Shown here: piece after piece, positions 3,705-59,303 of the stretch
Numbering within the stretch: the stretch's first letter is position 1
Layout: the number at the start of each line of letters is the position of its first letter
NCBI GenBank assembly: GCA_038870455.1
Contig: JAWCPB010000001.1
Location: forward strand, 3,734 to 67,733
DNA from: Candidatus Micrarchaeia archaeon
GTDB lineage: Archaea; Micrarchaeota; Micrarchaeia; Burarchaeales; JACRGF01
DNA length: 64,000 nt
Reading direction: 5' to 3'
Notes under the pieces: model-generated
Told to the model about the DNA's origin: nothing
The model's database searches: none
What the model saw: only the letters and a program-made list of their open reading frames with translations
Program-made: the position numbers and the translations under genes

Positions 3705-3716
3705 ATAAATAGCTTT

Positions 3717-4046: not shown

Positions 4047-5345
4047 TCACCTCGGCTTGAGGCGGCCCCACTTGGCGAGCGCGCGAGCGAGCTCGGGATG
4101 CCTTTTTGCCTTTTCCTCAAGGCTCTCTCCTTCCATCACCGCCTCGATGGCTTGCCTGAGCGCCTTCGCGCCAGCGCGCGTGCCATCGGGGTGGCCGTGA
4201 ATTCCTCCGCCTGCCTGAATGATTATGTCGCTTCCGAAAATTGACATCACGTCCGGCACAAGGCCCGGGTGCAGCCCTCCTGAAGAGACGGGAAACACGG
4301 GCTTGAGGCCGAACCAGTCCTGCGAGAGGTTGAGCGGGAGACTTTCATCCACCTTCTGCTTTGTAATCACTTCCTGAATTCGCTTTACTTCCTCCCTCGT
4401 TCCCACGAGCTTTCCCACGGCTGTCCCTATGTGAAGCTGGTCGACTCCAACAAGCCTGAGGAGCTTTGCCAGGCAAAGCATGCTCACCCCGTGCTTCGGG
4501 TTTCTCGTGAAAGCCGCGTGCATGGCCCTGTGCGCGTGAATGGCCAGCCCATAATCCTGGCAGGCTTCGCGCGCTGTCTGGAGTCCGGCAAAGCCGGCCG
4601 TCACCACATCCACCATGGCGTATTCCCATCCCAAGTCATACAAGAGTTTTGCCCTCTTCAGCATTTCCTTTGTTTCCGCAGTGATGTTGAGGAGCGCGCT
4701 CTTTCGCTCTCCCGTCTCCCTCTCCGCCCTCGCCCTCATCTTCGCGCACAGCCTGACTCTCTCCTCGAACCGGTTGAACTCCAGCGAAGTCAGGTTTTCA
4801 TCGTCCTTGACCAAGTCTATCCCGCCAGCCCAAGCCTCGTATGCAACCTCAGCGTGTTCTTTCGCCGAAAAGCCGACTTTAGGCTTTGGGACTGTCGCCG
4901 TAATGGATCTCTTCGGCTCCCTGAAAATCCTTCTTACTCCGGCTATGCCGAACTGCGGTCCTCTGAAGGCCCGCACATATTCTTTCGGCAGCGTGATGTC
5001 AATGAGCCTGAGATTGGCGAGCGCCTTCATCCCGAAAATGTTTCCGGCCACCCCGCTCAAGAGCTGCGGCGCGTTTCCTTTTTCCCAAAGCTCAAGCGGA
5101 TAACACAGTTTCGCAAGGCTTCCCTTCACCTCGAAAGCCATGCCCTTGAGCCTCTTTATTCTGGGCGGCAGCCGCGCGAGCGTAGTCCAGGTCCCCACCG
5201 AGCTCTCGGAAGCCATCCTGCCGAGCGCCTCGTCGCGCGCGATGCCTTCGGCCGGCTCGAAGTAAAAGAGCGCAACTAGGTCGCTTTTCGCCGGCCTTTC
5301 CCCAAAATCAACGAATTCCTCGTACCACTCGATTTTTCCTGCCAC
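4047..5345 (-). CDS. rbcL: ribulose-1,5-bisphosphate carboxylase/oxygenase large subunit, archaeal form III
   Basis: 432 aa. Carries the KPKVGFSAKEHAEVAYEAWAGGIDLVKDDENL catalytic-lysine region and the GGGIHGHPDG loop-6/C-terminal motifs of RbcL. There is no small subunit, and the length fits form III. Confidence 0.9.
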   Translation of the reverse strand: MAGKIEWYEEFVDFGERPAKSDLVALFYFEPAEGIARDEALGRMASESSVGTWTTLARLPPRIKRLKGMAFEVKGSLAKLCYPLELWEKGNAPQLLSGVAGNIFGMKALANLRLIDITLPKEYVRAFRGPQFGIAGVRRIFREPKRSITATVPKPKVGFSAKEHAEVAYEAWAGGIDLVKDDENLTSLEFNRFEERVRLCAKMRARAERETGERKSALLNITAETKEMLKRAKLLYDLGWEYAMVDVVTAGFAGLQTAREACQDYGLAIHAHRAMHAAFTRNPKHGVSMLCLAKLLRLVGVDQLHIGTAVGKLVGTREEVKRIQEVITKQKVDESLPLNLSQDWFGLKPVFPVSSGGLHPGLVPDVMSIFGSDIIIQAGGGIHGHPDGTRAGAKALRQAIEAVMEGESLEEKAKRHPELARALAKWGRLKPR

Positions 5346-7734: not shown

Positions 7735-8538
7735 TCACTTTATTCCAAGCTCTGCGGCTCTCCTTGCGGCGGCCTCGAAAGCTTTTGCCAGCGCTTCTCT
7801 GAACTTCGCGCTTTTTAACTCTTTCATTCCCGCCTCGGTCGCGCCGCCCGGTGTGGCCACCTGCGAAATCAACTCCTTCGGAGGCAGGCCCGTTTTCTCC
7901 ACCATCTTTCCGGCCCCGAGGCAGGTCTGGGCGGCCAGCTCAAGCGCGATGTCTTTCGGCAGGCCAGCCCTCTCGCCTGCCTCGGCGAGCGCGCCGACGG
8001 CTTCATAGAAATAGGCCGGCCCGCATCCGCTCAACGCAGTCACCGCATCCAACAGTTCTTCCTTCACGCGCACGATTTTTCCCACAGAGCCGAAGAGGCA
8101 CTCGACAACCGCGGCGTCCTTCTCGCCCGCCGTTTTTCCGAGCGCGTAGGCGCTCGCGCCCTCGCCCACGAGGCAAGGGGCGTTTGGCATGACCCTCGCA
8201 ACCCGCGCTCCGGGAAGCTTGGCTTCGACGAAGCTGATGGAAACGCCCGCGGCTATGGAAATAACGAGCTTGCCCGCCGCCCGCCCGGCAATTTCCTCGA
8301 GGACAGCCGGCACGGCCTGCGGCTTGACGCACACGAGAACCACATCGCTTTTTTGCAAGACTTCGTTGTTGTTCCCCGCAGCCTTCACGCCCAGCTCTTT
8401 CGCCAGCGCGGCCGCCTTTCCGCCGCTGGCATCACTCACGATTATCCGTCTCGGGTCAACCGCCTTTGCCGCGAGAAGGCCCTTGACCAGCGCGCTGCCC
8501 ATCTTTCCGGCGCCGATGAAGCCGATGGTTTCCTTCAA
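7735..8538 (-). CDS. proC: pyrroline-5-carboxylate reductase
   Basis: GFIGAGKMGSALVKGL Rossmann motif plus P5CR C-terminal dimerisation domain (...ATPGGATEAG...). Confidence 0.9.
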   Translation of the reverse strand: MKETIGFIGAGKMGSALVKGLLAAKAVDPRRIIVSDASGGKAAALAKELGVKAAGNNNEVLQKSDVVLVCVKPQAVPAVLEEIAGRAAGKLVISIAAGVSISFVEAKLPGARVARVMPNAPCLVGEGASAYALGKTAGEKDAAVVECLFGSVGKIVRVKEELLDAVTALSGCGPAYFYEAVGALAEAGERAGLPKDIALELAAQTCLGAGKMVEKTGLPPKELISQVATPGGATEAGMKELKSAKFREALAKAFEAAARRAAELGIK

Positions 8539-8548
8539 TGCCAGGCAA

Positions 8549-8916
8549 TCACCTTATGCACGCATAGCTTGCCGGCGAAGAGCCTAGGGGAGCGACGACC
8601 TCTGCTTTGACGGCCTGCGTTTCTCCGGGAAACAGCAGCTTGCTGCACACGAGCTTTTCGGCGAGCACTTCCGCGCTTTTTCCGACCGCCTGCACTCTCG
8701 CGCACCCGCTGGCCAGCATGCCCCCTTCGTTCTTGAAACTCACGTCAAGCCTCAGCACTGTGGAAAAGCCGCTTTGCTCAAAAGAAGGATTTGAGCAGGC
8801 GAAGGTCACTCTCGAAGAGCCCGTGAAAGCGGCGGCCACTGGCGGAGGCTGCGCCACGCAAGCTGCCAGAAAAGCCACCATCACAACCGCCAACCCCACC
8901 CCGCCTCGCGCCATAA
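8549..8916 (-). CDS. small secreted/lipoprotein-like protein, hypothetical
   Basis: The internal start MARGGVGLAVVMVAFLAACVAQ gives a signal peptide with a lipobox-like AAC. The longer ORF-track N-terminus would overlap the proS start, so it was shortened. Confidence 0.45.
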
Positions 8917-8959
8917 TCCCATCCAACCAATTTAAACCTTTTCGAATATAAAAGCATGC

Positions 8960-10372
8960 GTGCAGCTCGACAAAAGCAATTTCTCCGAATGGTTTTCGCA
9001 GGTCGTTGAGCAAGCCGACATAATAGACATCCGGTATCCCGTCAAGGGCATGCCCATCTACAAGGGATGGGGTTATGCCGCCCTCCGCGCGTGCTTCAAC
9101 CTCCTCGAAGAGAAGCTCAATGCCTCTGGCCACCAGCAGATGCTATTTCCCCTCCTCATTCCCGAAGACCAGTTCGGCAAGGAAGCCGAGCACATCGCCG
9201 GCTTCGCCGACGAGGTGATGTGGGCCACGCACGCCGGCCTCGAGCGCATGGAGAGGAAGCTCGCCGTGCGCCCCACGAGCGAGACCGTCATGTACCCCAT
9301 GTTCGCGCTGTGGATCCGCTCGCACGCCGACCTTCCCCTGCGCGTGCATCAGACCTGCTGCGTGTACAGGTACGATACGAAAACGACGCGGCCGCTCATC
9401 CGCGGCAGGGAGATTTTCTGGAACGAGGCGCACTGCGTGCACGCGAGCGAGGAGGACGCTGAAAAACAGATTCGCGAGGCGTTCCGCATCTACAGCGAGT
9501 TCTACGCCGCCCTCGGCGTGCCTTTCCTCGCCCTCCGCAGGCCGGAGCACGACAAGTTCCCTGGCGCGGCTTATTCCATCGCGCTCGACGTGCTCATGCC
9601 CGATGGCAAGGTCCTCCAAGCCGCTACCATCCACAACCTGGGCGAGAACTTTTCGCGCGTCTACAGCATAGAGTTCGACGACGAGAAGGGCGGCAAGCAC
9701 TTTGCGAAGCAGACCACTTACGGAATTAGCATGCGGTGCTTGGCCGCGGTCATCGCGGTTCACGGCGACAACAAGGGCCTCGTCCTGCCGCCGGCCATCG
9801 CCCCCGTGCAGGCGGTGATCGTCCCAATCCTGAGCGCCGAAAAGGGAAAAGAAGCCCTCGAAGCCTGCAGGAAGATAGAGGACAGGCTGCGGCGCGCAGG
9901 CATCCGCGTCGCCCTGGACGAGCGCGAGGTCAGGCCGGGCGAGAAGTTTTACCACTGGGAGGGCAGGGGCGTACCCGTACGAATAGAAGTGGGCCCGAAA
10001 GACGTTGCTGCAAGCAAAGCGGTCGTCGCGCTGAGGACGGGCGAAAAGAAGAGCGTGCCGCAGGAGGAGATTGTCGAAGAAGTCAGGAAAGCCTTTGAAA
10101 CAGTTCTCTTCGAATTGCGGAAGAAAGCCGAGGCAGGCCTGCGCGCCCGTCTCTCAACCGCGAGGAATACGGCTGAGCTGAAAAAGGCGATTGAAAAAGC
10201 AGGCGGTTTCGTCAAGGCCGGCTGGTGCGGCGAAGTCGATTGCGCCAACGCGATCCAGGAAGCCACGACTGCAGAAGTGAGGGGCACGGAATTCGGCAAG
10301 CCAAAGGAAAAGAGCGTCTGCATCCACTGCGGCAAAGAAGGTTTTGCCGCGTGGTTCGCCAAAGCCTACTGA
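8960..10372 (+). CDS. proS: prolyl-tRNA synthetase, archaeal/eukaryotic type
   Basis: 470 aa. Class II aaRS motifs, archaeal-type architecture with a C-terminal Zn-binding domain (CIHCGKEG). Confidence 0.93.
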   Translation: MQLDKSNFSEWFSQVVEQADIIDIRYPVKGMPIYKGWGYAALRACFNLLEEKLNASGHQQMLFPLLIPEDQFGKEAEHIAGFADEVMWATHAGLERMERKLAVRPTSETVMYPMFALWIRSHADLPLRVHQTCCVYRYDTKTTRPLIRGREIFWNEAHCVHASEEDAEKQIREAFRIYSEFYAALGVPFLALRRPEHDKFPGAAYSIALDVLMPDGKVLQAATIHNLGENFSRVYSIEFDDEKGGKHFAKQTTYGISMRCLAAVIAVHGDNKGLVLPPAIAPVQAVIVPILSAEKGKEALEACRKIEDRLRRAGIRVALDEREVRPGEKFYHWEGRGVPVRIEVGPKDVAASKAVVALRTGEKKSVPQEEIVEEVRKAFETVLFELRKKAEAGLRARLSTARNTAELKKAIEKAGGFVKAGWCGEVDCANAIQEATTAEVRGTEFGKPKEKSVCIHCGKEGFAAWFAKAY

Positions 10373-10401
10373 TTTTAACCCGTTTCTCCAGAAATAAATT
10401 C

Positions 10402-10525
10402 AGCCCCGTCGTCTAGCGACCCTTTTTCGTCGAAACGAAAAAGCGTCGACGGAAAAAGGTCGGGCAATGGCCAAGGATTCGAGGCTTTGGACCTCGAGAC
10501 GTCGGTTCGAATCCGACCGGGGCTA
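10402..10525 (+). tRNA. tRNA-Gln (anticodon UUG) with ~51-nt intron in the D-loop
   Basis: Acceptor AGCCCCG (10402-08) pairs with CGGGGCT (10518-24); A1:U72 is typical of archaeal tRNA-Gln. D stem GTCT / GGAT. Anticodon arm CGAGG-CTTTGGA-CCTCG with anticodon TTG at 10487-89. T arm GTCGG-TTCGAAT-CCGAC. Removing 10417-10467 (itself a long hairpin) gives a 73-nt mature tRNA. No encoded CCA. Confidence 0.8.
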
Positions 10526-16832: not shown

Positions 16833-16867
16833 CAGGCTTTAATAGTTTCTCCAACAAATTACTTTCC

Positions 16868-17048
16868 GGGCCGGTAGATCAGCGGTAAAACCCTTTTCCG
16901 ACGCTTCGGAAAAGCGTTTACGGAAAAGGTTTCGCGTGAGATCGCCGCCTTCGCATGCCTCTCTGGGATCAGAAAAAGGCGGAGGCCAGGGGTTCAAACC
17001 GAACCGCGGGAACTAGTCCGGCGGTTGGTGAAAATCCCCTCCGGTCCA
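16868..17048 (+). tRNA. tRNA-Ala (anticodon CGC) with three introns (D-loop, anticodon loop 37/38, T-loop)
   Basis: Acceptor GGGCCGG / CCGGTCC with the G3:U70 Ala identity pair. D stems GATC (16877-80 and 16940-43). Anticodon arm CCGCC-TTCGCA[21-nt intron 16956-16976]A-GGCGG. Variable AGGCC. T arm AGGGG-TTCAAA[~36-nt intron 16999-17034]T-CCCCT. The D-loop carries an ~50-nt insert (about 16887-16936). The spliced product is near-identical in its stems to canonical archaeal tRNA-Ala. Confidence 0.75.
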
Positions 17049-17205
17049 CACGCGCTTCATGCGCTCCTTTTGTCAGTAGTTTTCTATGCCGTATGGACTC
17101 GTCTGCCTCCACTTGCCTGGAAGGCATACAAGGAAGAGGAATTCACTCCGCCGAAAATAACGAAATTGCTCTGGCTCACAGCCAGCCATCCCCAGCAAAT
17201 CGTCC

Positions 17206-17993: not shown

Positions 17994-18248
17994 ATGTACG
18001 GGCAGACAATCAAAATCTGTGCGGATGCCGCTGAACGCGTTTTCAAGAAACTATGGAAGAGCGCGCCCCGGCAGGCTCGCGTCGTCCTGTCCGCGTGGCT
18101 GGACAGGATAGAGCGCCTGAAAGAATGCATTCCGGAAGCCGTAATGCCGAAGTACGACGGGTTTGAAGTGCGTGCGCGCATGGGGCGCGCACTGCCCGCG
18201 AAAGACTTCGCACGCATTCCGCCCTTGCTCGAGCCTTTTGGCGGCTAA
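17994..18248 (+). CDS. hypothetical protein (weak)
   Basis: In-frame ATG inside the GTG-started ORF 17691-18248. No recognisable domain. Convergent 4-nt overlap with ftsZ. Confidence 0.25.
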   Translation: MYGQTIKICADAAERVFKKLWKSAPRQARVVLSAWLDRIERLKECIPEAVMPKYDGFEVRARMGRALPAKDFARIPPLLEPFGG

Positions 18249-19318
18249 ATGTAGTTGATGTCCTCAAGGCCCAGCACGAGCTTCGCGTCCTGCTGCCTCT
18301 CGAGCGGCTTTCCGAGAATCTGCGGCGATGTTATGCCGGTCATTATCGCGGTGACGACGACCTGGTCCTCGAGCTCCGGCGACAGCCTCGCCCCCCAGAT
18401 GACATTGGCGTTCTCGTCGAAAGCCTCGGTCAGCTTCTCCCCTATCGTTGTCGCTTCGCCGAGAGTCAGCGTGGGCGAGCCGGCTATGTGAATGAGCGCG
18501 CCCTTGGCCCCCGTGTAATCCACGTCGAGAAGCGGGTTGGTGAGCGTGCTCTTGACGGCCTTCTCCACCTTGTCGGTTCCCTTTCCCTCCCCGACCGCGA
18601 TCATGGCCACGCCCGCGTTGTTCATGATCGCCTTTACATCCGCGAAGTCGATGTTCACGAGGCTCGGCAGCGTGATGGTGTCGCTTATTCCCTTGACGGC
18701 CTTGGCGACGATCTCGTCCGCGATCTGGAAGGCCTGGTTCATGGGCAGGTTCGGCACGTAGCTGACGAGGCGGTTGTTGTCTATGATGACCACCGTGTCG
18801 CAGATTTTCTTGAGCTGGTCTATTCCCCAGTAGGCCTTTTCTATCCTCGCCCTCTCGAGGCTGAACGGAAAGGTCACCATGGCCACGACAATCGCTCCCT
18901 GTTCCTTCGCCACTTCAGCGATGACCGGTCCGGCGCCCGTGCCCGTTCCCCCGCCCATTCCCGCGCTGAGGAACACGAGCTCGCTGCCAGCCAGCACTTC
19001 CCTCAGACTGTCCCTGCTCGCTTCCGCACACTTCTGCGCTACTTCGGGGAATCCGCCGGCTCCCAGCCCGCGCGTGATGGACTGGCCGATGAGCACTCTC
19101 CTGCTCGCCTCGACAATACGCAGGTGCGTGGCGTCCGTGTTTATCGCAACCGTGTCCGCGCTGCGTATGCCCATTTTCGTGAGGCGGTTTACCGTGTTGC
19201 AACCCGCCCCTCCCACGCCAACCACAGCAATTCTTATCCTGTCGGACGAGGTTGAGGCCTCGGGCTGGGGCTGCCCGCTTCCAAGAACCGAGTTAATCAA
19301 ACTCTCCACTGCCACCAC
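18245..19318 (-). CDS. ftsZ: cell division GTPase FtsZ (paralog A)
   Basis: Tubulin signature GGGTGTG, AVVGVGGAGCN, N-terminal GTPase and C-terminal domains. 357 aa. Confidence 0.95.
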   Translation of the reverse strand: MVAVESLINSVLGSGQPQPEASTSSDRIRIAVVGVGGAGCNTVNRLTKMGIRSADTVAINTDATHLRIVEASRRVLIGQSITRGLGAGGFPEVAQKCAEASRDSLREVLAGSELVFLSAGMGGGTGTGAGPVIAEVAKEQGAIVVAMVTFPFSLERARIEKAYWGIDQLKKICDTVVIIDNNRLVSYVPNLPMNQAFQIADEIVAKAVKGISDTITLPSLVNIDFADVKAIMNNAGVAMIAVGEGKGTDKVEKAVKSTLTNPLLDVDYTGAKGALIHIAGSPTLTLGEATTIGEKLTEAFDENANVIWGARLSPELEDQVVVTAIMTGITSPQILGKPLERQQDAKLVLGLEDINYI

Positions 19319-19378: not shown

Positions 19379-20449
19379 TCACCCGATTATCTCAATGTCG
19401 CCGTACGCCACTTCCTTTGGCTTGTCCTCGAACGGCTTGCCGAGCACGCTCGCGCCCTTCACGCCCGTGACTATGGCGACTATCTCTATCTTCCCGTCAT
19501 AGCCTGGTATGAGGCGCGCTCCCCACTTGACGTTCGCCTTGGGATCCATTCTCTCAGTGATTATCTCGCCTGCCTTTATCGCGTCGCCGAGCGTGAGGTC
19601 GCTTCCCCCGCTTATGTGGATGATCGCCCCGCTCGCACCCTCGAAATCAACGTCAAGCAGGCGGTTCTTAAGCACTCCCTCCGAGGCTCCGGCCACCTTG
19701 TCGGTTCCCTTTCCCTCCCCGACCGCGATGAATCCGACTCCCCCTCCGCCCATGATCGCCCTCACGTCGGCGAAGTCGATGTTGATGAGGCTCGGCTGGG
19801 TGATTGTCCAGACCAAGCCGCCGATGGCCTTGGCGAGAATCTCGTCGGCCACCGAGAAAGCGTCGTTCATGGGCAGGTTGGGCACAAGCTGCACCAGCCT
19901 GTTGTTGTCGAGCACTATGCACGAATCCACCACTTTCCTGAGATTGGTTATTCCCTCGTCGGCCTTGACTCTCCTCGCCCTCTCGAGGCTGAACGGGTAA
20001 GTCACCATGGCCACGACAATCGCTCCCTGTTCCTTGGCGATCTGGGCGACGATCGGTGCCGCGCCCGTGCCCGTTCCCCCGCCCATTCCCGCGCACACAA
20101 ACACGAGGTGTGCATTGGAAAGCTCTTTCTCCAAAAGGTGCCTGTCGACCTCGGCCGCCTTCGCCCCGGTTTCGGGATAGCCCCCGGCTCCCAGCCCGCG
20201 CGTGATGGACTGGCCGATGAGCAACTTCTTGGCCGCCTCATTCACCACGCTCAGGTGCTGCCTGTCCGTATTTATGGCCAACAGCTCGCACCCTTTCACG
20301 CCCGCCCTCACTAGCCGGTTGATGGTGTTGTTTCCAGCACCGCCCACGCCGGCGACCACTATCTTTATGCTCTCGGAGCCAAAGTTTTCCTGAGCTGGCC
20401 CCTGCTCTCCCATAACGCTTTTTATCAAACTCTCCATACTGATCGCCAC
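19379..20449 (-). CDS. ftsZ: cell division GTPase FtsZ (paralog B)
   Basis: GGGTGTGAAP, VAGVGGAGNN. 356 aa. About 55% identical to paralog A by eye. TATA TATTTAAATA at 20468-77. Confidence 0.95.
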   Translation of the reverse strand: MAISMESLIKSVMGEQGPAQENFGSESIKIVVAGVGGAGNNTINRLVRAGVKGCELLAINTDRQHLSVVNEAAKKLLIGQSITRGLGAGGYPETGAKAAEVDRHLLEKELSNAHLVFVCAGMGGGTGTGAAPIVAQIAKEQGAIVVAMVTYPFSLERARRVKADEGITNLRKVVDSCIVLDNNRLVQLVPNLPMNDAFSVADEILAKAIGGLVWTITQPSLINIDFADVRAIMGGGGVGFIAVGEGKGTDKVAGASEGVLKNRLLDVDFEGASGAIIHISGGSDLTLGDAIKAGEIITERMDPKANVKWGARLIPGYDGKIEIVAIVTGVKGASVLGKPFEDKPKEVAYGDIEIIG

Positions 20450-20546: not shown

Positions 20547-20906
20547 ATGGCAGCGGAAAAAAATCCTGCGAAAAAATCTTCCGGAAAAATTTCTGAGAAA
20601 GACGTGCTCGGCGCGCTGAAGGCAGTTATCGACCCCGAGATAGGCATTGACATCGTGGATCTGGGCCTCGTGTACGAAATTAAGATAGACGCGGAAAACA
20701 GCGTGCATGTGAAGATGACTCTCACCACTCCCTTCTGCCCGCTGGGACCCATGATTCTCAACAACGCAGAGCGCGCCGTGCAGGGAATCAAGGGCGTGAA
20801 GAGCGCGAAAGTCGAGCTCGTGTTCGAGCCGCCTTGGACTCCGGACAGAATGAGCACGGAAGCAAAAAAATCGCTTGGCTTCACGCAGCCCGCGCAGACC
20901 CCTTAA
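20547..20906 (+). CDS. DUF59/MIP18-family Fe-S cluster assembly protein (SufT-like)
   Basis: Conserved DPEIGIDIVDLGLVY...TTPFCP motif. ATG at 20547 with TATAAAAA ~23 nt upstream. The ORF-track TTG start is 21 nt further up. Confidence 0.8.
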   Translation: MAAEKNPAKKSSGKISEKDVLGALKAVIDPEIGIDIVDLGLVYEIKIDAENSVHVKMTLTTPFCPLGPMILNNAERAVQGIKGVKSAKVELVFEPPWTPDRMSTEAKKSLGFTQPAQTP

Positions 20907-22213
20907 GTCACTCCAATCTTCGCCATCGCGTTTCTCGGGTTCTCGTAGTAGGCCTGCGTGAATTCGCTGAGCTGCTTTATCTCGCGGATGCCCGCCCTGG
21001 CGAGCGCGCGCAGCACCTTCACGCGCAGCGCAAGCTCGTCCATGACTTCCTTGGGCGAAATGCCCGCCGCGGACGCCAGGCGGTCCCTGTAAATCACGCT
21101 GGGATGTACATTCACCATGCTGCCCGTGTGCGGGTCGAAGGAGCACAGGTCGCTGAGGAGAACTTTCTTCTCAATCCCCCCCGTCTCGGTCACCTGCCCG
21201 ACCACTCGCCTCAGCCTGCCATTCACCCAATAGTGCCGCGTGACGATGAAAACATCGATGAGCGGAATGACCTCGGTCGGGACGCTCATGGGAACGTTTT
21301 CAAGGCGCATGACGGCCTCCCTCGCGCTGTTGGCGTGCAGCGTGCCCATGCAGATTTTTCCTATGTTCATGGCGGTCATGAGGTCGTTGGCCTCGTTTCC
21401 CCGCACTTCGCCGACGATTATCCTGTTTGGGTGCATGCGCATGCTGTTTTTGACGAGGTCCTGCATGGTCAGCTCCTCGGTCGTCTCGAGCCGAGCGGTG
21501 TTCTCGTTCGCCTCGGTGTTCAGCTCGAGCGTGTCCTCGATGACCACGATCCTCTCGTTGGCGGGAAAGAAGGAAAACAGGGCGTTGAGCATCGTCGTCT
21601 TGCCAGAGCCGGGCATTCCCGCGATGAGTATGTTGGCCGGCTTTATGCGCAGCCCGTCCGCGTACAGCCAGAACTGCGCGGCCAGCTCAACGCTCATGGT
21701 GTTGTTTTCGACCAGGTCGATGAGCGAGAGGGGCCTCTTGTTGAACTTCCTGATTGTAATCTGCGGCCCGAAGGGCGAGGCTATGACGTTCGCCCTGCTT
21801 CCCTCCGGCAGGTGGAAGTTGTTTATGTCGTTCAGCCTGTCTTTTCCTGAGAGCACGAGCAGGCGCTTTACAAACAGGTTGAGCTGTTCGAGTGTTCTGA
21901 ATTTCCTGTCGGTCTTGACCATGCCTTCTTTCGTGGAGAACGTGTAGATGGGCTTGAGGCCGTTTATCATTATGTCCTCAATCTCCTCCCTTCTCATCAG
22001 GTCGTCGAGCTCCCCGTAGCTCAGCACGTTCCGGATGAGCGCGTTCTTCTTCTCCTCGCTGATTTTTCCATAAACTTCCCTGACGGCCTCGCCGACGATT
22101 CTCTCCTGCTCCTCCCTCGTCTGCACGAAGGAAAGCCTTCCCACGAGCTTTTCGAGCAGCCTCTCTTCCTTCTCCTCTTCCTCGGTTTTGCTTGTTTCAA
22201 TCTCGAGCTTCAT
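20903..22213 (-). CDS. GspE/VirB11/FlaI-family secretion ATPase (type II/IV secretion system protein E-like)
   Basis: Walker A IAGMPGSGKTTMLNAL. Asp box ERIVVIEDTLEL, Walker B and His box region (RIIVGEVRG, GTLHAN). 436 aa, shorter than archaellum FlaI. 22 nt downstream of the last membrane paralog on the same strand. Confidence 0.88.
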   Translation of the reverse strand: MKLEIETSKTEEEEKEERLLEKLVGRLSFVQTREEQERIVGEAVREVYGKISEEKKNALIRNVLSYGELDDLMRREEIEDIMINGLKPIYTFSTKEGMVKTDRKFRTLEQLNLFVKRLLVLSGKDRLNDINNFHLPEGSRANVIASPFGPQITIRKFNKRPLSLIDLVENNTMSVELAAQFWLYADGLRIKPANILIAGMPGSGKTTMLNALFSFFPANERIVVIEDTLELNTEANENTARLETTEELTMQDLVKNSMRMHPNRIIVGEVRGNEANDLMTAMNIGKICMGTLHANSAREAVMRLENVPMSVPTEVIPLIDVFIVTRHYWVNGRLRRVVGQVTETGGIEKKVLLSDLCSFDPHTGSMVNVHPSVIYRDRLASAAGISPKEVMDELALRVKVLRALARAGIREIKQLSEFTQAYYENPRNAMAKIGVT

Positions 22214-22234: not shown

Positions 22235-23263
22235 CTATATTAATCTAATCAGCCCCTGGGCGATCTCGGCGACGTTCGCGCCCAGCAGGTCGGATAGCTG
22301 CTTCACCGCAGTGAATGTTACGGTCAGCGCCATGAGTGGGTATATGTAGGCTTCCATGAACATGAAGGGGATGAGCCTGCCCACAGTGGTAAGGTAGGCT
22401 ATTATTCCAGTGTTTTTTACCTTCCATATAAAACTCAGCTGCGCGATGCCTTCCTGCGTTGCACACTGCTCCCTCAGCGCCTCCACATTGTACTCCACGC
22501 AGCTCAGCAGGTCGTGCTGGGCCGCCACCGATAATATGAGCGCATAGCTGAAGGGATACACCAGATACATGCCGATGGCCAGCCCCATGAGGAAGGCGCC
22601 CGCCCCCCTTGTGTAAGGCAGCACGCGCAGCACAACGCCGAGGGGCAGGAATATCGTAAACATGGTGTCCGCGACAAAGTTGAGAAGTTGCCTCTGGAAA
22701 TAGTTAGCGATGAGCAACCACGTCGAAAGCTGGGCTATCTGATGGGCAATGTTGGAAGGATAGGAGAAGGGCCAGCCCGTGACGGTGTGCACGCCATAGC
22801 TCGACAGCGTCACACTCGCCATTGTATCCACGACCAGCGCAATGCGCAGCGCCGTGACATAATAACGCCTGAGGCAGTCCAGCGTGCTGTTGAGATAAAA
22901 GTGGGTGAGGCTGAACGGATTGTCGGGTTGGATGACTCCCGGGGGTATGACCGACAACACTGGGTTATTGACAGCCAGCTCGCGCGTAGTGTTTGCCACG
23001 CCGGTGGAGATGAGGCCGGTGAAGGCGATGAGGCCGAACACGAGCATGGCGCTGGCCATCGCCTGCAGGAATTCACTCCGCGCCCACTTTTTTGCTTCGG
23101 GCAGGTCAAAGATGACTGAGACCATGTAGGCGAGCGCCACAAGAAATATGGATGTGAGCACAGCCAGCGCGGCGGCCTGCTGCCACACCAGCCCGGCCCC
23201 AGTCGTCCAGGCCGTCGTGACCGCAGCCTGCGTTGCCTGCCCGAAATCCGCCTGCAACATCAT
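22235..23263 (-). CDS. paralogous polytopic membrane protein P1 (unknown family)
   Basis: Multiple TM helices. Shared motifs WARSEFLQ, FLPLGVVLRVLPYTRGAGAFLMGLAIGMYLVYP, and C-terminal LGANVAEIAQGLIRLI. Confidence 0.7.
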   Translation of the reverse strand: MMLQADFGQATQAAVTTAWTTGAGLVWQQAAALAVLTSIFLVALAYMVSVIFDLPEAKKWARSEFLQAMASAMLVFGLIAFTGLISTGVANTTRELAVNNPVLSVIPPGVIQPDNPFSLTHFYLNSTLDCLRRYYVTALRIALVVDTMASVTLSSYGVHTVTGWPFSYPSNIAHQIAQLSTWLLIANYFQRQLLNFVADTMFTIFLPLGVVLRVLPYTRGAGAFLMGLAIGMYLVYPFSYALILSVAAQHDLLSCVEYNVEALREQCATQEGIAQLSFIWKVKNTGIIAYLTTVGRLIPFMFMEAYIYPLMALTVTFTAVKQLSDLLGANVAEIAQGLIRLI

Positions 23264-24678
23264 ATCATCCTCGTGAGGTTGGACACATCCACCTCCTCCC
23301 CAAAGAACCGCGAGAGGTCGCGCGCGATGGTTACAAGCAGGATGAAATTAAAAGCCGGCAGCAGAATGGCCCCAATGAGAATATAAGAGGCCACCCGGAT
23401 AAGCCCAAAGATCGCGTATGTGCCGCCCACCAGCGCCAGCAGCGTGCCGCCCAGCGCGCCCTTGAGCAAAGCCATTCCACCCAGCCTGCCTATCGCCGTC
23501 ATCGATGTCAGCACGGGCGCCAGGTAGGCTACAAGGACTGCCCATACCGTATGCCCAATAATGGCGAGCATTCCCAGCGCGTCCTCTTCGCTCACCGACC
23601 AAGCAGACCGAGGCACCTTGCAGGACGTGCACACGCCGCCCTCACATTCTCCTGAGAAACAATCGCTGCCCGCGTCACATGCATCGCCAGGATAGCCGAG
23701 CTCAAGACATCTGTTCGGCTGGTTTGGGTCGAACCTTCCAGAACAGCACTCCTGCGCCGTGCTGGCTTCTCCCGCAAAAATACATGGGGGGCAACTCCCA
23801 TCTGCATCGCATGTCAGGCCACCACAGCACTCGGTCGTCGAGTAGGGCCTGCACCTGTACTGGGAGGAGAGGGCGCCCATCACGTCATTTGTGGCATCGG
23901 CAATCGCCAGCATGTTTATTCCGAGCAGGATTGGATAGAACACGAACAGCGCCACGGCAATACCCATGAGCGCGCCACCGAATCCGCGCGTGAAGCTGAA
24001 GCACCTCAGCACAACACCCACGGGCAGCACGATGTTGAACATGGATACGAGGATGAACTTGAGTATCTCGGCCTGCACGAGGTTGGTTATCCAGGCGATT
24101 GTAAAGGACTGCAGCATGAGGTTGAGCCCGCTCTCGAGCGCCGAGAGCCCGGCCATGGGCTGGACGCTGACGCCATATCCGCCGGGCTGCATGCCGCTCG
24201 CATAGCTCGTGGCGATTGCCACGCGCCACTGCAGCACAAAGGCGTGCAACCATCCAGTTATTATTTTTTCATTCAGCCACCTCACATACTCAAAGGCATA
24301 GTCATACAGGTTCGGCGTTGTGCCGGCGGGCATGCCGACGAGGTTTGGGTCGAATCCGAAAAGCGCCGGAAAGCTCGGGCTGCACAGCACGCCCACGGCC
24401 AGCACGAGGTTGGCCACGATGACCAGGCTCGCCGCCGTTTGGTAAAACTCGTTCTTCGCCCACGTCGCCGCGCCCGCGATGCCCAGCACGGTTGCTCCCA
24501 TGTACGCGAGCACAAGGATGAAGAAGGAGAGCAGCGCGCCCAGCGTGGCCCAGCCGGCCCACGAGCCCCAGCTCGCCGTTATGCCGCACGCGTACGCGGC
24601 GCTCGTTGAGATGGGTGGGGATATGCTCACACACCCCGCCAGCGCGAATGCGCCCAGCACAACAAACATCCTGTTCAT
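23260..24678 (-). CDS. paralogous polytopic membrane protein P2 with Cys-rich extracytoplasmic insert
   Basis: Lipobox-like LAGC signal. WAKNEFYQ. VLPVGVVLRCFSFTRGFGGALMGIAVALFVFYP. A ~90-aa insert with 20 Cys (CCGGLTCDADGSCPPC...). C-terminal FGEEVDVSNLTRMI. 4-nt overlap with P1. Confidence 0.7.
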   Translation of the reverse strand: MNRMFVVLGAFALAGCVSISPPISTSAAYACGITASWGSWAGWATLGALLSFFILVLAYMGATVLGIAGAATWAKNEFYQTAASLVIVANLVLAVGVLCSPSFPALFGFDPNLVGMPAGTTPNLYDYAFEYVRWLNEKIITGWLHAFVLQWRVAIATSYASGMQPGGYGVSVQPMAGLSALESGLNLMLQSFTIAWITNLVQAEILKFILVSMFNIVLPVGVVLRCFSFTRGFGGALMGIAVALFVFYPILLGINMLAIADATNDVMGALSSQYRCRPYSTTECCGGLTCDADGSCPPCIFAGEASTAQECCSGRFDPNQPNRCLELGYPGDACDAGSDCFSGECEGGVCTSCKVPRSAWSVSEEDALGMLAIIGHTVWAVLVAYLAPVLTSMTAIGRLGGMALLKGALGGTLLALVGGTYAIFGLIRVASYILIGAILLPAFNFILLVTIARDLSRFFGEEVDVSNLTRMI

Positions 24679-24682
24679 GTCA

Positions 24683-25885
24683 TCACACTATCTTGGAGAG
24701 CGCTTGCAGATTGACGTCGGCTCCCAAAATATTTGCCAGTCCTCTTATCGCCGTGAAGGTGATGAGCAGCTGGAGGGCAGGCATGACAAATCCCAGCACG
24801 ACTGTCATGTAAACAAAATAGCCAATGAGCATGATGAGAATGACGGTCAGCGCAGGAATCAGCTTTCCCGTGGGCAGCAGGAAGAGCAGAAAGAACACCT
24901 CCCCAAGATAGACAAAACCGCTCGGATTGAGCAGTGTGGACACGGCGTTCACCAGATGCTCGCGCATTGGCTCAGTGATTCTCTCAGCCACATCGAGTGC
25001 GGTGCAGCTCGGCGGAAGCGGCGCGCCGAAGCAGTACGCCCTTGCCATGTGCGCCTTCAGAAATTCGAACGACATGATGTATGTGAGCGGCCACACCACA
25101 TAGAACCCCACGGCGATGGCGATGAGCGCGCCGCCCGCGCTGCGCGTGAATGGGAACGTCCGCAAAAGAATCCCGACGGGAAGAAAGATCGGCATCATGG
25201 TGTCACGGACAAACTTGAGAAAAACCTGCTGCCCTATGATGCTGGCCAGCGCGAGTCCCTGCCCATTAAGCACTATGGCGAGCGCATCCAGGATTGGGCG
25301 CAGCGCCACGCCCGGCTGTATGGTTATGCCCACACGCATGGGCGCGATGGAGACGGTCGAGGAGGCGAGCACCCCAAATGCTATGTTCATGCCGTTGAAA
25401 ATGATGTAAAATACTATCACTATCCTTTGCGCGATGGCGAGAAATTGCTCGGCAACCTGGAATGCATCGTTGGCGGATACGGTGAGGCCCGCCGAAACCC
25501 TCTCCAGGTACCATGGCAGGTAAAACAGCGGGACGAAAACCTGATCGATGAAGCTGATTATGACGAACATCGCGCCAACGAAAATCGCGGTGGCGACGAG
25601 CTGGTACAGCTCGTTCTTTGCCCATACAAGCAAGGAGGGCATGCCGAAGCCGAACGCCAGCATGAACATCACAGCGACAACAAAAGACGAGAGCAGCAGG
25701 GCGATCATCGTTGGGCCATACCAGTTCACTCTCGTCTCGCACGTTCCCGTCTCGGTGAGGTAGGTGCCCGGGCAGCATCCACCTGGCCCGGGCGGCGCCC
25801 CCGCGCCCGTGCACCGCTGTATCGTGCCGAGGCAGCCAGACAAGAGTATGAGCCCGACCAGCGCGAGCGCCCACGCCCTCATCAT
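24683..25885 (-). CDS. paralogous polytopic membrane protein P3
   Basis: LLSGC signal. WAKNELYQ. FLPVGILLRTFPFTRSAGGALIAIAVGFYVVWP. C-terminal LGADVNLQALSKIV. Confidence 0.7.
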   Translation of the reverse strand: MMRAWALALVGLILLSGCLGTIQRCTGAGAPPGPGGCCPGTYLTETGTCETRVNWYGPTMIALLLSSFVVAVMFMLAFGFGMPSLLVWAKNELYQLVATAIFVGAMFVIISFIDQVFVPLFYLPWYLERVSAGLTVSANDAFQVAEQFLAIAQRIVIVFYIIFNGMNIAFGVLASSTVSIAPMRVGITIQPGVALRPILDALAIVLNGQGLALASIIGQQVFLKFVRDTMMPIFLPVGILLRTFPFTRSAGGALIAIAVGFYVVWPLTYIMSFEFLKAHMARAYCFGAPLPPSCTALDVAERITEPMREHLVNAVSTLLNPSGFVYLGEVFFLLFLLPTGKLIPALTVILIMLIGYFVYMTVVLGFVMPALQLLITFTAIRGLANILGADVNLQALSKIV

Positions 25886-26955
25886 ATCAACCTCGTTAGC
25901 CCGGCGATCTCAATGTCGCCGCCGAGATTCTGCGAGAGTATCTTCACAAAAGATATCGTGGTGATGAGGCTCACAAACGGCACGAAGGTGGCATAGATAA
26001 GGATTTTGGCCGTTTTCTCAAACACGCCCTCGTCACCGATGAGCCAGCTTCCACCGGTGAGCGTGCCGGTAATGGCATCCCATAGCCCGAAGTTTTCGGG
26101 CTTGTGCGGCACAAGACTCTTGCCCAAACCCGTGCCTTGCGCGCTCGTGTATGCCTCCTCCAACGCGCTCGGGTCGATGATGAGCACGTATGTTTTGGCC
26201 GTGGTGGCGCCCACCACGGCGTGAGCCAGCAGATAGACAATGGGTAGCACGAAATAGACGCCTATGGCCACCGCCATGAGCAGTCCCCCGAGCCTTCGCG
26301 TCATGAAGAACGAGCGCAGCACAATGCCGAGCGCCAGTAGCGTCGGATACAGCGAGAACATCGTCAGATCGAAAAAGACCTCAACGGCCTTCATGACTAT
26401 CATGACCTTGGTGATGAGGTCAAACGTGGTGTTGAGGCTGTCGGTGATGACATGAAAACCTGCGAGCGGGGTGAACATGAAGTTGAGCCACGGTGCAACC
26501 AGCCCCTCCCAGCCCACGGACATCGATGCCAGCATGAGCAGCCATGAGTTCGTGCGCAGGATGAGTTTGTTCATCTCCCTCAGGTTGGAATACATCGCAG
26601 TCGTGTAGTTGCGGGCCAGCAGGATGTGGCATCCAGTTCCCGTGCAGCCCACATCGGCCGCCAGCGCGGCATCCAAGCTCGTCAGCAGCCCGACGAGCGC
26701 GGCCACGATGACGAGGCTGGCGATTGCCTGGTACAGCTCGTTCTTGCCCCACGTCTTGAGGTGAGCGATGTTGAAACCGAAGCCCACCGCATAGGCTAGT
26801 GCTGTCAGCATCAGCATGATGAACGCGAGCGTGAGCGCCTCGGCCCGCCAGTCCCACGGCGTGCCGCCCCACAGCGTGGTGATTGGCTTTCCCCCGAGCG
26901 TCACACAGCCCGACAGCAGGAGCAGGGCAAGCACGGCCACAAGCACTTTTTTCAT
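25882..26955 (-). CDS. paralogous polytopic membrane protein P4
   Basis: LLSGC signal. WGKNELYQ. LGIVLRSFFMTRRLGGLLMAVAIGVYFVLP. C-terminal LGGDIEIAGLTRLI. Confidence 0.7.
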   Translation of the reverse strand: MKKVLVAVLALLLLSGCVTLGGKPITTLWGGTPWDWRAEALTLAFIMLMLTALAYAVGFGFNIAHLKTWGKNELYQAIASLVIVAALVGLLTSLDAALAADVGCTGTGCHILLARNYTTAMYSNLREMNKLILRTNSWLLMLASMSVGWEGLVAPWLNFMFTPLAGFHVITDSLNTTFDLITKVMIVMKAVEVFFDLTMFSLYPTLLALGIVLRSFFMTRRLGGLLMAVAIGVYFVLPIVYLLAHAVVGATTAKTYVLIIDPSALEEAYTSAQGTGLGKSLVPHKPENFGLWDAITGTLTGGSWLIGDEGVFEKTAKILIYATFVPFVSLITTISFVKILSQNLGGDIEIAGLTRLI

Positions 26956-26959
26956 CGCA

Positions 26960-27898
26960 TCATCTACCCAGCTTGTGTATGATGACTTTTACGGTTGCCT
27001 TGATGAATGTAGTGGTGATCACCATGCTCAGCGCGGGCAGGAAGACCGCCTGGGGAATGACATGGCTGATGGTCAGAAACGCCTTGCACTGCCTGCGCGG
27101 ATCAAAATAGCTGAAAATCCCGAAACGGCTCACATCACCCGGGTTGGCAGGCGTGCCCGGATCGAGCGGCACGCTGCACAGCCCGAAGAGTCCCAGCTTT
27201 GCGCTCGGGTCGTTGATGTCGCTCCAGATCACATCGGCGACCATGGCGTTCATCACATAAGTGAGCGGAAACACCACGTAGAAGCCAAAGGCTGCTGCCA
27301 TGAGGAACGCGCCCGCATCCCTGGTGAAGGAGATGCCTCTCAGCAGAATGCCCGCGGGCAGCACGATTTGGAACATGGTGGCCTGGATGAACTGCAACAG
27401 CACCTGCTGCAACAGCAGGCTTGAGAGAAGGGGCCCGAGGATGTTCTCGAGCAAGTTGATGTTGTTGGCAAGTCCCTTTAGCCCGGCGAGCGGCGCATAG
27501 CTGAATCCCCACGCCGTGGGTCCTATCTGCACCGCGTACTGCCCGATGACATTCGCTTCGTACGCCAACGCAAACAGCTCCATCATGGTGGGCACGGCCT
27601 GCGTCCACACCAGCTCGGTGAGATACTTGTCCGCTATGTCAAACGGATTGCCTCCGGCGAGCTGCAGCGAGAGCTGGCAGGCCAGGCTCGAGAAAAACGC
27701 CGCGTTGGCCAGCAGGAAAAGCGTCAGAAGGACTTGGAAGAACTCCTCCTTCGCCCACGCCTGCCAGCCGGGCCTTGCAAACAGCGGGGCCACCATGTAC
27801 ACCCCGCCGACAAACATGAACACGATGAGCATGGCTACGGCAACGGTGTCGCCAATTCCCGGCAGGGGAGCGCAATACGAGAGAGTTGCGGCAGGCAT
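26960..27898 (-). CDS. paralogous polytopic membrane protein P5
   Basis: The start was reset to the internal ATG (MPAATLSY...), 2 nt after the P6 stop. WAKEEFFQ. VLPAGILLRGISFTRDAGAFLMAAAFGFYVVFP. The C-terminus is divergent. Confidence 0.65.
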   Translation of the reverse strand: MPAATLSYCAPLPGIGDTVAVAMLIVFMFVGGVYMVAPLFARPGWQAWAKEEFFQVLLTLFLLANAAFFSSLACQLSLQLAGGNPFDIADKYLTELVWTQAVPTMMELFALAYEANVIGQYAVQIGPTAWGFSYAPLAGLKGLANNINLLENILGPLLSSLLLQQVLLQFIQATMFQIVLPAGILLRGISFTRDAGAFLMAAAFGFYVVFPLTYVMNAMVADVIWSDINDPSAKLGLFGLCSVPLDPGTPANPGDVSRFGIFSYFDPRRQCKAFLTISHVIPQAVFLPALSMVITTTFIKATVKVIIHKLGR

Positions 27899-27900
27899 GC

Positions 27901-29588
27901 TCACACCAACTTGGTCATCCCAGCCAGCTGCGTCTCTCCACCGAGCGAGCCTGACAACGAGCGGAAGAATGTTATGACGATTATGATGTCGACTACGGTC
28001 AGCACAGTCACCACAAGCAGCTTTCTCACCACAATGGGCAGCGCCCACTCGTCTGGAACCAACCAGGTAAAGGTCGGATTATCGGTGAGGCCGGCGTTGG
28101 GGCACAGGGCCGGCACGCTGCCTTTGCACGATGAACATGGCTGCTGTGCCGTGTTGGCATCGCACGTGATGTAGTCATACGCAGCGTACACATAATACGT
28201 GGGCCAAAGGCTCTGGAAAGAGCCAGAGCCCACCGCCCCAAGTAGGCTAACCAGTGGCGAGCCCGCCACCACCCCAACGCCCGTGATGCCGGCGAAAAGC
28301 AGCTGCCCGCCCACCGATTTCCACACCTCTCCCGCCCGCTCGTACTCCCGCCTCAGCCAGCACATGACCTGATACCATTTGCACGCGGGCTTCACCGTGA
28401 CATTGAGGCTGGCCTCGGCCATGTCCTGGCAATAACCACGCGGGTCACACCCGCCGTAAGACGTGCCATCGGGCCTAACCACTACAGGGCATCCTTCGCT
28501 GCAGGGCGTGGCGTTTATCGTTGTCACCACAACCCCGTACTCAAAAAGACCCTCGCCCGGATTGCTCACGGGAAAGTTAACGGGCACGCCAGCGGCATAA
28601 GCCCCTTCACCGAGCCATACGAAATCCGTAGACGCGCCCTCCTTCCACTCTCTGTACCACACATCATAAGTGCCATTGGGCGCCTGGATGAGAAAAGTGA
28701 GGTTGAAATAGCCGGTCCCGCCGACAGTGCTGAGGGGCGAGAAAAAGGCAATCTTACCAATGCGTCCGAGGTCGCTTTCGACAATCCTCCACTCCGGCGG
28801 GATGTCGCCAGCCGCGCTGTACTGCGCCACAACATCTCTGTCATACTCATAGATGCCCTTATTGAGGGCGAGCGTGAGCGGAAACACGACATACCCCGAT
28901 ATGGCGAGCGCGATGATGGTCGAGCCAAGCTTTCGCGTCAGACTGAACGTCCTGAGTATCAGGCCGAATGGCAGGAAAAACGTGAAGAACTGCTCGTATA
29001 TAAACTCCAGCAGCGCTTGCTGGGCCATGAGATTGACGATGGTGAGCGCGGCGGCGTCGGCGATTTTTACAATCATCCCGTTCACCATCGTCAGCCCCAC
29101 CAGCGGGCTGATGCCCACGTTGGGCATCGTTGTGCCGATGGGAATCCCAAAAAGCTGCGGATAGAGCACGGTGCCCATTGTACCGAGCGTGCCTATGCCG
29201 GCATCGAGCGTCAGCAGGCGGGTATAAACGCGCGTCAGGTCGTTCAGCGTCTCGCTCAGATAAGCATAGCCGAGGCCGATGTGGCTGTAGCCACCCGTCA
29301 TGTCTGACACAATTGTGTTAAGCACGGTCAGCGAGGAGAAGACAAGGCCCACCATGAGCGCGCTCACCGCCGCTTCGGCGAGCTCGTTCTTTGCCCATGC
29401 CTGCAGCTCGGGCGAGCGAAGCAGCTCGGACAGCATGTACGCAATTGCCACGAACAGGAACGAGATGGCAACTGCCGTGAGGGCGATCGAAAACCAAAAC
29501 GCCTCGCCTCCCCACGTTGTCTGTATCGACGTTGTCACATTGAGCAGGAACTGCTCGGGCGGCGCGGTCGGGGAAGGCAGGGTCATCT
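27901..29588 (-). CDS. paralogous polytopic membrane protein P6 (largest; extra Cys-containing extracytoplasmic domain)
   Basis: The start was reset to the ATG at 29586 (MTLPSPTAPP...). The ORF-track N-terminal 207 aa overlap leuS on the other strand and follow the TATA box. WAKNELAE. FLPFGLILRTFSLTRKLGSTIIALAISGYVVFP. C-terminal LGGETQLAGMTKLV. Confidence 0.7.
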
Positions 29589-29613
29589 CTATCGAGGTTT
29601 TTACTTCTCCACG

Positions 29614-29624
29614 CTTTAAATAGG
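29614..29624. promoter_or_regulatory. bidirectional TATA-box promoter (membrane-paralog operon / leuS)
   Basis: CTTTAAATAGG lies ~29 nt upstream of the P6 ATG (29586, minus strand) and 22-29 nt upstream of the leuS GTG (29644, plus strand). Confidence 0.55.
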
Positions 29625-29643
29625 TTATCTGTGAAAAAACCGC

Positions 29644-53567: not shown

Positions 53568-53620
53568 CGCTTTTGCCGGATCGCCGGCAAAAGGGTTGTA
53601 TCGTTGGTTCCGATACCTCC
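53557..53620. repeat. 64-nt double-hairpin element, copy 1
   Basis: TTTTCCGTCAACGCTTTTGCCGGATCGCCGGCAAAAGGGTTGTATCGTTGGTTCCGATACCTCC. Hairpin 1 is CTTTTGCCGG/CCGGCAAAAG; hairpin 2 is GTATCG/CGATAC. Confidence 0.8.
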
Positions 53621-53673
53621 GAACCGCGGGAACCTACGGTTCCCCCAGTTCCAGGTTCCTCCTGACCCCTCCC

Positions 53674-59248: not shown

Positions 59249-59267
59249 GCCCGTTATTTTACCAATC

Positions 59268-59281: not shown

Positions 59282-59303
59282 CGCGTATTGCATAGCTCTC
59301 TGC

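Follow-up and report, generated by a model that had tools for sequence, protein, structure and literature searches.

Architecture of the tRNA-Ala(CGC) locus

We analysed a 64,000-nt stretch of contig JAWCPB010000001.1 from the Candidatus Micrarchaeia archaeon assembly GCA_038870455.1 (the window; loci fetched for comparison carry L-numbers). On its forward strand, between positions 16868 and 17048, lies a locus that upon in-silico splicing resolves into the four exon pieces and three introns of a tRNA-Ala(CGC) gene. Exon 1 (16868-16886) holds the 5' strand of the acceptor stem, U8, the 5' strand of the D-stem and D-loop nt 14-20; it was delimited by splicing and ARAGORN and is identical in L001, the ortholog described below. 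Intron 1 (16887-16938, 52 nt) interrupts the D-loop at 20/21 and is followed by exon 2 (16939-16955), which contributes A21, the 3' strand of the D-stem, G26, the 5' strand of the anticodon stem and loop nt 32-37 including the CGC anticodon. Intron 2 (16956-16976, 21 nt) occupies the canonical position 37/38. Exon 3 (16977-16998), placed like exon 2 by ARAGORN and comparison with L001, supplies nt 38, the 3' strand of the anticodon stem, the variable loop, the 5' strand of the T-stem and T-loop nt 54-59. Intron 3 (16999-17034, 36 nt) splits the T-loop at 59/60, and exon 4 (17035-17048) completes the gene with U60, the 3' strand of the T-stem, the 3' strand of the acceptor stem with U70 and the discriminator A73. 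All three introns were scored for bulge-helix-bulge (BHB) motifs. CCA is not encoded at the 3' end of the gene.

Joining the four exons gives GGGCCGGTAGATCAGCGGTAGATCGCCGCCTTCGCAAGGCGGAGGCCAGGGGTTCAAATCCCCTCCGGTCCA, a 72-nt product with a standard cloverleaf that ARAGORN calls tRNA-Ala(CGC). The spliced tRNA contains the tertiary and universal nucleotides U8, A14, G18G19, U33, T54T55C56 and A58, and its T-loop reads TTCAAAT. The determinants of alanine identity are all present, with G16870 (G3) pairing with T17045 (U70), A73 at 17048 and the anticodon CGC. An earlier annotation of this DNA, which we call the sequence-only reading, had proposed that the locus splices to a tRNA-Ala(CGC) with G3:U70 after removal of ~50, 21 and ~36 nt from the D-loop, 37/38 and 59/60. 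The ARAGORN call on the 72-nt product agrees with this identity, and the introns of 52, 21 and 36 nt fall at the same positions. When left unspliced, the 64-kb window yields zero tRNAs by ARAGORN and the tRNA-Ala locus has no Rfam match, even at E <= 10. The unconstrained minimum free energy (MFE) fold of the 181-nt precursor, computed with RNAfold, gives the acceptor, D, anticodon and T stems at -84.3 kcal/mol.

The flanks of the gene hold two candidate signals, both read directly from the letters. A TATA-box-like TTTAATA at 16838-16844 (forward strand), centred ~27 nt upstream of tRNA nt 1, is a candidate archaeal promoter of the tRNA-Ala gene; its counterpart in L001 is TTAAATA, and the region is partly conserved. 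On the 3' side, at 17050-17071 (forward strand), the trailer forms a hairpin, GCGC-TTCAT-GCGC, followed by a T-run. The trailer sequence CACGCGCTTCATGCG is kept in L001, and the hairpin with its T-run is a candidate termination or processing signal.

The FtsZ of the window has a relative that is 94% identical in GCA_038890815.1, a second genome labelled 'Candidatus Micrarchaeia archaeon', and a 21-kb locus from that genome (L001) is syntenic with the window. We found that an intergenic gap in L001 carries an ortholog of the tRNA-Ala gene whose exons are identical at 72/72 nt. Its introns 1, 2 and 3 are 42, 15 and 31 nt long, as against 52, 21 and 36 nt in the window. There are thus no changes among 72 exon positions, while 10 of 88 aligned intron nt are substituted and a further 21 nt are lost or gained (Fisher p = 0.002 on the substitutions alone). 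In intron 1 of L001 we observed a 10-nt deletion and 6 substitutions; in intron 3 the differences are confined to the inner helix and the terminal loop. The 5' flank differs by 10 substitutions and 16 gap nt over 60 nt. Judging by this comparison, the exons are under purifying selection and the introns are drifting.

Splice junctions, host and proposed processing

The junctions were scored against a BHB layout in which a helix joins 4 exon nt to the 3' end of the intron, a 3-nt bulge borders this helix on either side and the cuts fall after the second nt of each bulge. Intron 3 has a strict hBHBh' motif, with a central helix UUCA:UGAA paired at 4/4 positions, bulges AAC and AAU, the 5-bp T-stem as outer helix and an inner helix made of C:G, a G·G mismatch and then AACCGC:GCGGUU (6 bp). 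Intron 1 is near-strict: its central helix (A)GCG:CGC(G) pairs at 3/4 positions with one A·G, the bulges are GUA and UGA, the outer helix is the 4-bp D-stem, and the inner helix AAACC:GGUUU has 5 bp, against 10 bp in L001. The motif of intron 2 is of the relaxed HBh' type, with a central helix UUC(G):(A)GAA (3/4, one G·A) and bulges CAU and AAA; the 5-bp anticodon stem forms the outer helix, and the inner helix is weak, at about 1 bp. Expressed as central/outer/inner base pairs, the scores in the window are 3/4/5 for intron 1, 3/5/1 for intron 2 and 4/5/1 for intron 3; in the ortholog, where the cut sites are the same, the corresponding values are 3/4/10, 3/5/2 and 4/5/1. The sequence-only reading had named the folding of each junction as a check on itself, and BHB geometry is found at all three, strict, near-strict and relaxed for introns 3, 1 and 2 respectively. 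A fold in which all three BHBs are enforced reaches -74.7 kcal/mol against -84.3 for the MFE, a cost of 9.6 kcal/mol.

Several observations weigh against a functional gene with three introns. Splicing of the precursor is read from sequence alone. A strict pattern for the three-intron tRNA-Ala architecture matched 1 of 185,579 species-representative genomes, that of the L001 relative, and the comparative support therefore comes from two genomes. BHBs as loose as that of intron 2 are expected by chance ~23 times per 181 nt in the window. Since the motif of intron 2 is weak and not rare, it is the tRNA product and the ortholog, and not the motif, that support this intron. Neither EndA nor RtcB was found among the 50 open reading frames (ORFs) of the window that were scanned with Pfam.

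In a different reading, the locus is a decaying tRNA pseudogene or another tRNA with fewer introns, such as tRNA-Leu(CAG). ARAGORN does yield a tRNA-Leu(CAG) model when nothing but the T-loop intron is taken out. The sequence-only reading had held that a fold requiring fewer introns would be fatal to its proposal, and such a fold was sought by making all single excisions with an optional anticodon-loop intron. The sole outcome was a poor tRNA-Leu(CAG) with a 70-nt intron, which we rejected: its D-stem is broken, it has neither the long variable arm nor a BHB (best 4/1/0), and it retains G3:U70. The same procedure turned the ortholog into a tRNA-Val(GAC), so that the identity changes between the two genomes, and the three-intron reading stands. 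Decay of a pseudogene is difficult to reconcile with 72 of 72 identical exon nt beside diverged introns and flanks; this contrast indicates a functional spliced gene and rules out chance resemblance as well as pseudogene decay. We consider a pseudogene or a different tRNA to be very improbable. With high probability, the locus is a tRNA-Ala(CGC) gene that functions in its Micrarchaeota (DPANN) host and is predicted to carry three BHB introns.

The named matches of FtsZ are nearly all from Micrarchaeota or Micrarchaeia. By these marker-protein best hits, together with the 21 kb of synteny with GCA_038890815.1, the host is assigned to Candidatus Micrarchaeota (DPANN). According to Fujishima et al. 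2011 (PMC3239211), 56% of the tRNA genes of ARMAN-2 are disrupted and introns at 59/60 are present, the ε2 EndA of ARMAN-2 cuts both strict and relaxed BHBs, and archaeal tRNA genes are given as containing up to three introns each. An ε2 endonuclease has been reported for ARMAN-1, ARMAN-2 and Mancarchaeum, and broad-specificity enzymes have been tied to multi-intron tRNAs (Kaneta et al. 2018, PMC5829648). Because multi-intron non-canonical tRNAs and a broad-specificity endonuclease are documented in Micrarchaeota, the tRNA-Ala case is expected and not anomalous; it is a new instance of a phenomenon already known in this group. The sequence-only reading had drawn attention to an FtsZ-encoding archaeon as the setting. 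FtsZ is indeed encoded, and its best hits place the archaeon in Micrarchaeota, one of the lineages already known for such tRNAs.

The gene resembles the disrupted tRNAs of ARMAN-2 (PMC3239211; Hirata et al. 2012, PMC3488258) in coming from the same phylum-level group, in having more than one intron, in mixing strict and relaxed BHBs and in being missed by standard tRNA finders. It differs in that the main-text examples in PMC3239211 have one or two introns, and in that neither a D-loop 20/21 intron nor a three-intron tRNA-Ala is described there. Moreover, the ε2 enzyme is established for ARMAN-2, whereas for the present genome it is only presumed. The multi-intron tRNAs of Thermoproteales, as cited in PMC3239211, likewise have up to three BHB introns per gene, intron positions clustered just 3' of stems and a need for a broad-specificity endonuclease. 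However, these organisms belong to TACK and use an (αβ)2 enzyme, in contrast to DPANN and presumably ε2 here. A probe with an approximate M. jannaschii EndA query had as its only match a Thermoplasmatota α'2-like enzyme on the comparison locus L041.

Processing of the tRNA-Ala transcript can be proposed as follows. Transcription from the TATA-like box ~27 nt upstream would give a precursor of ~181 nt plus leader and trailer. In this precursor the D-, anticodon- and T-stems would each continue into a 4-bp helix, formed by the first four loop nt and the 3' end of the intron and bordered by two 3-nt bulges. A splicing endonuclease, judging by the phylum most likely a broad-specificity ε2 enzyme, would cut after the second nt of each bulge, at six sites in all. 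An RtcB-type ligase would then join the four exons, and the introns would probably be circularised. RNase P and RNase Z would trim the ends, the CCA-adding enzyme encoded in the window (57860-59374, reverse strand, by Pfam) would add CCA, and AlaRS would recognise G3:U70. The window also encodes ProRS, GatA/GatB and aIF2γ.

An intron core with copies in many host RNAs

The window contains a second disrupted tRNA gene, a tRNA-Gln(UUG) with A1:U72 at 10402-10525 (forward strand), which was recognised by excision and ARAGORN. Its exons (10402-10416 and 10468-10525) are separated by a 51-nt intron (10417-10467) at the non-canonical position 15/16, and the central helix of the BHB pairs at 4/4 positions. 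The exons are identical in L001, where the intron is 45 nt long. The sole Rfam match in the window, 10469-10525, is the 3' portion of this gene, with the D arm missing. An assignment of 10469-10525 to a tRNA-Pro(UGG) next to ProRS was considered and ruled out, as after excision ARAGORN calls a tRNA-Gln(UUG) with A1:U72.

We found that the tRNA-Gln intron is homologous to intron 1 of tRNA-Ala, with z = 6-7 against shuffles (alignment z = 6.1). One genome therefore holds homologous introns in different tRNA genes and at different positions (20/21 and 15/16), as in the Thermoproteales-type pattern. The two introns have in common AACCCTTTT … AAAAGCGT(T/C)NACGGAAAA. The core was defined as AACCCUUUU – variable covarying hairpin – AAAAGCGUUNACGGAAAA, and an intron was assigned to the element family when block 1 (AACCCTTTT), a spacer of 2-66 nt and block 2 (AAAAGCGT(T/C)NACGGAAAA) lie between BHB splice sites. 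Intron 1 matches both blocks exactly. Its core covers 16889-16929 on the forward strand, with block 1 at 16889-16897, the hairpin spacer CCGACGCTTCGG and then block 2 (AAAAGCGTTTACGGAAAAGG) at 16910-16929; it leaves 2 nt of the intron on its 5' side and 9 nt on its 3' side, in agreement with the mode of the family.

Within the window there are 4 copies of the block-2 20-mer (<=2 mismatches) against 0 expected by chance. Two exact 65-nt direct repeats on the reverse strand (53673-53737 and 53556-53620, within 53556-53737), each with the core, occupy the intergenic stretch that separates the L10e gene from the ORF beside it. They have a period of 117 nt, each is preceded by the hairpin GTATCG-GAACCAA-CGATAC, and they constitute free-standing element copies downstream of the L10e gene. 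No Rfam family matches these repeats at E <= 10. Their flank GGAGGTATCGGAACCAA also adjoins the element in L022 and L125. Introns 2 and 3 of the tRNA-Ala gene have no relatives in the other loci except for a weak 15-nt match at 53619-53633 (E = 0.015).

Metagenome contigs were scanned by exact match, with block 1 left outside the search pattern, and at least 120 loci contain the core pattern. The counts that follow hold among the matches listed. Across the fetched sequences, window included, we count 107 unique copies of the core, and block 1 occurs within 90 nt upstream in 92 of 110 unique hits. Block 1 is near-invariant (the two A's of AA in 89/90 and 85/90, the third C in 87/90). The 2-66 nt spacer forms a hairpin with compensatory changes: 52 double-change cells were observed versus 21.9 in shuffles, none of 500 shuffles reached 52, and slid registers all scored lower. 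The trailing GG is the least conserved part of the motif according to divergent copies, and sequence more than 2 nt upstream of AACCC is unconserved.

For 39 copies a single excision produced a tRNA across the junction, 36 in sense and 3 in antisense, with the strand parsed from ARAGORN. In the 24 well-supported cases with good BHBs, the site is 37/38 in 14, the variable/T side in 8 and the D side in 2. In 15 of these 24 the core starts 1-3 nt past the 5' splice site, and in 18 the distance from its end to the 3' splice site is 7-10 nt (modal value 9 nt, 11/24). With this tight spacing, the element is essentially the whole intron. The antisense copies are found in L012 and L049 (tRNA-Val D-loop) and in L037 (tRNA-Leu). 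Their BHBs are acceptable in L012 and L049, and the outer helix is absent in L037. Antisense copies with an acceptable BHB suggest that the RNA sequence of the core is not itself required for excision.

The core also occurs in sense inside archaeal rRNA, in the 16S of L062 and L112, in the 23S of L030 and in that of L033 and L035, which are 23S by sequence. The 23S match of L030 extends over 4960 nt and its model over 2987 nt, implying that several large insertions are present. Free-standing or tandem intergenic copies are present at 53.6 kb in the window and in L121, L113 and L082. L022 (2041-2500) has an intact archaeal signal recognition particle (SRP) RNA (Rfam, 113.7 bits), and directly after it come AACCCTTTTT, a spacer of 66 nt, block 2, a helix GGAACCAAGG…CCATTGGTTC and TGATGCG. 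The same larger layout of ~200 nt is seen in L002 (7770-8010, reverse strand) and L058, both from Micrarchaeota and beside FtsZ. It might represent an extended version of the element, or else a small RNA that has so far escaped recognition.

Micrarchaeota hosts of the element are represented by the window, L001, L002/L058 and L084, and Thermoplasmata hosts by L041 and L006. The contigs L062/L027 and L015 cluster with proteins from Methanosarcinales-labelled metagenome-assembled genomes (MAGs). Among the matches listed, hosts thus come from three phylum-level groups. The EndA of L041 is a 336-aa two-unit, α'2-like enzyme (8583-9590, reverse strand), 69% identical to proteins of Thermoplasmatales MAGs. 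In the same locus (3590-3720) a tRNA-Glu gene has the element at 37/38 and, it seems, a second insert in the T-loop (GGGTTCGAAT|GCACACATT…), unexpected given a strict-specificity enzyme.

The core has no match to an Rfam family, and we found no description of it in the literature by sequence string or by topic, in a search that covered subscription journals thinly. A single match on a viral contig was not accepted as a viral copy, for it has no block 1 and looks like chance. Block 2 is complementary to a conserved stretch of 16S over 9 nt, which by our estimate is at chance level. We tentatively propose, with a little less than even confidence, that the D-loop intron of the tRNA-Ala gene is one of a family of miniature BHB introns, hitherto undescribed, that share the core AACCCUUUU–covarying hairpin–AAAAGCGUUNACGGAAAA. 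This family would be spread over Micrarchaeota, Thermoplasmata and Methanosarcinales-affiliated lineages, and would be housed in intergenic transcripts, in both 16S and 23S rRNA and in tRNA genes at many different positions.

Readings of the core, neighbouring genes and wider meaning

Movement of introns has its closest precedent in Thermoproteales, for which transposition of tRNA introns has been inferred (Fujishima 2010, as summarised in PMC4090602). We think it most likely that the core family spreads as a mobile intron, with survivors limited to sites where a BHB forms. The presence of the core at many positions, in many host RNAs and in several phyla, with occasional antisense and free-standing copies, argues for this. 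The element copies of L001 have also decayed, that in tRNA-Ala by a 10-nt deletion and 4 core mismatches and that in tRNA-Gln to a degenerate core, beside identical tRNA exons. This suggests that neither splicing nor the host tRNA depends on the core. The likeness to the transposed Thermoproteales introns lies in intron gain by movement (PMC4090602). The present family differs in that its core consists of 9 + ~18 near-invariant nt flanking a variable hairpin, in that it is found across Micrarchaeota, Thermoplasmata and Methanosarcinales-labelled contigs, and in that it also occurs in 16S and 23S rRNA, after an SRP RNA gene, as free-standing tandems and occasionally in antisense.

Mobility is not favoured by every observation. 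Copies in one genome differ in their spacers and do not look like recent bursts, and selection on an RNA function could account equally well for the covariation and the near-invariant blocks. Neither a transposase nor an ORF-bearing autonomous copy was found in the 777 kb of fetched sequence, window included, and no target-site duplication was seen in the flanks by eye. The core could accordingly be read as a functional RNA module selected by the host, serving as a BHB-presenting clamp, a protein-binding site or a small (circular) RNA spliced from tRNA and rRNA precursors. The near-invariance of both blocks over three phylum-level groups fits such a module, as do the sense bias of 36 to 3 and compensatory changes in the hairpin, for example between tRNA-Asp genes with the element at 37/38 (CGACGCTTCG vs CGGCGCTCCG). 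The spacer differences within one genome further indicate that the copies are not recent duplicates. The intron of euryarchaeal pre-tRNA-Trp hosts a box C/D guide RNA, and a functional RNA in a BHB intron would similarly explain the conservation and sense bias of the core. However, the core has no discernible C/D boxes or kink-turn (K-turn), no H/ACA signature by eye and no Rfam match, and a core shared by many different host RNAs cannot serve any one target as a guide in cis. The three antisense copies in tRNA genes, whose BHBs we count as acceptable apart from the missing outer helix in L037, also speak against a host-selected module, as does the decay of both L001 cores while the exons stayed identical. 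We regard such a module as unlikely, yet far from negligible.

The core might instead be a DNA transposon, like a miniature inverted-repeat transposable element (MITE), that lands in neutral sites, with older introns and short intergenic spacers as refuges, and is not itself the intron. Inverted repeats are partly recognisable in its termini, AACCCTTTT(C) and (G)GAAAAGGGTT, copies are found in either orientation (3 antisense), free-standing and tandem intergenic copies exist in the window at 53.6 kb and in L121, L113 and L082, and one copy directly follows the intact SRP RNA gene of L022. However, the tight spacing between core and splice sites in the 24 tRNA cases, with no residual sequence of an older intron, disfavours a nested transposon. 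The absence of target-site duplications by eye, the lack of conservation more than 2 nt upstream of AACCC and the lack of an ORF-bearing autonomous copy in the fetched loci point in the same direction. This origin therefore seems improbable to us, and a mobile intron continues to be the reading we prefer for the family.

The neighbourhood of the tRNA-Ala gene includes two tandem FtsZ paralogs (18245-19318 and 19379-20449, both reverse strand) located 1.2 kb downstream; the pair is kept in L001-L004. A T2SSE/archaellum-type ATPase (20903-22213, annotated from L001) is followed by a run of six large ORFs (342-768 aa; 22235-30207, reverse strand) that have no Pfam match and are syntenic in L001. 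This six-ORF run may be a lineage-specific surface or pilus cluster. Elsewhere in the window, at 4047-5345 (reverse strand), is a homolog of the RuBisCO large subunit (Pfam E = 1.5e-90), presumably of form III and involved in nucleotide salvage. On the element-bearing contig L080, at ~8072-10459 (reverse strand), an S-adenosylmethionine (SAM) synthetase (MAT) gene is seemingly split by an intein-like insert, as judged from a longest-ORF translation.

Of the two disrupted tRNAs in the 64-kb window, ARAGORN found neither, and Rfam detected no more than the 3' part of one. Because tRNA finders miss disrupted genes, annotations of Micrarchaeota MAGs will list too few tRNAs, and decoding capacity may be judged absent where it is present. 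The tRNA-Ala gene on its own adds one documented case of extreme tRNA disruption in DPANN. If the proposed intron family is real, then no BHB intron family of such reach had previously been defined by its sequence, whether mobile or functional. Its short sequence signature would make the question testable by comparative genomics and simple biochemistry, and the at least 120 loci, the two orientations, the free-standing copies, the pairs of decayed and intact orthologs and the hosts in several phyla would all be useful for such tests.

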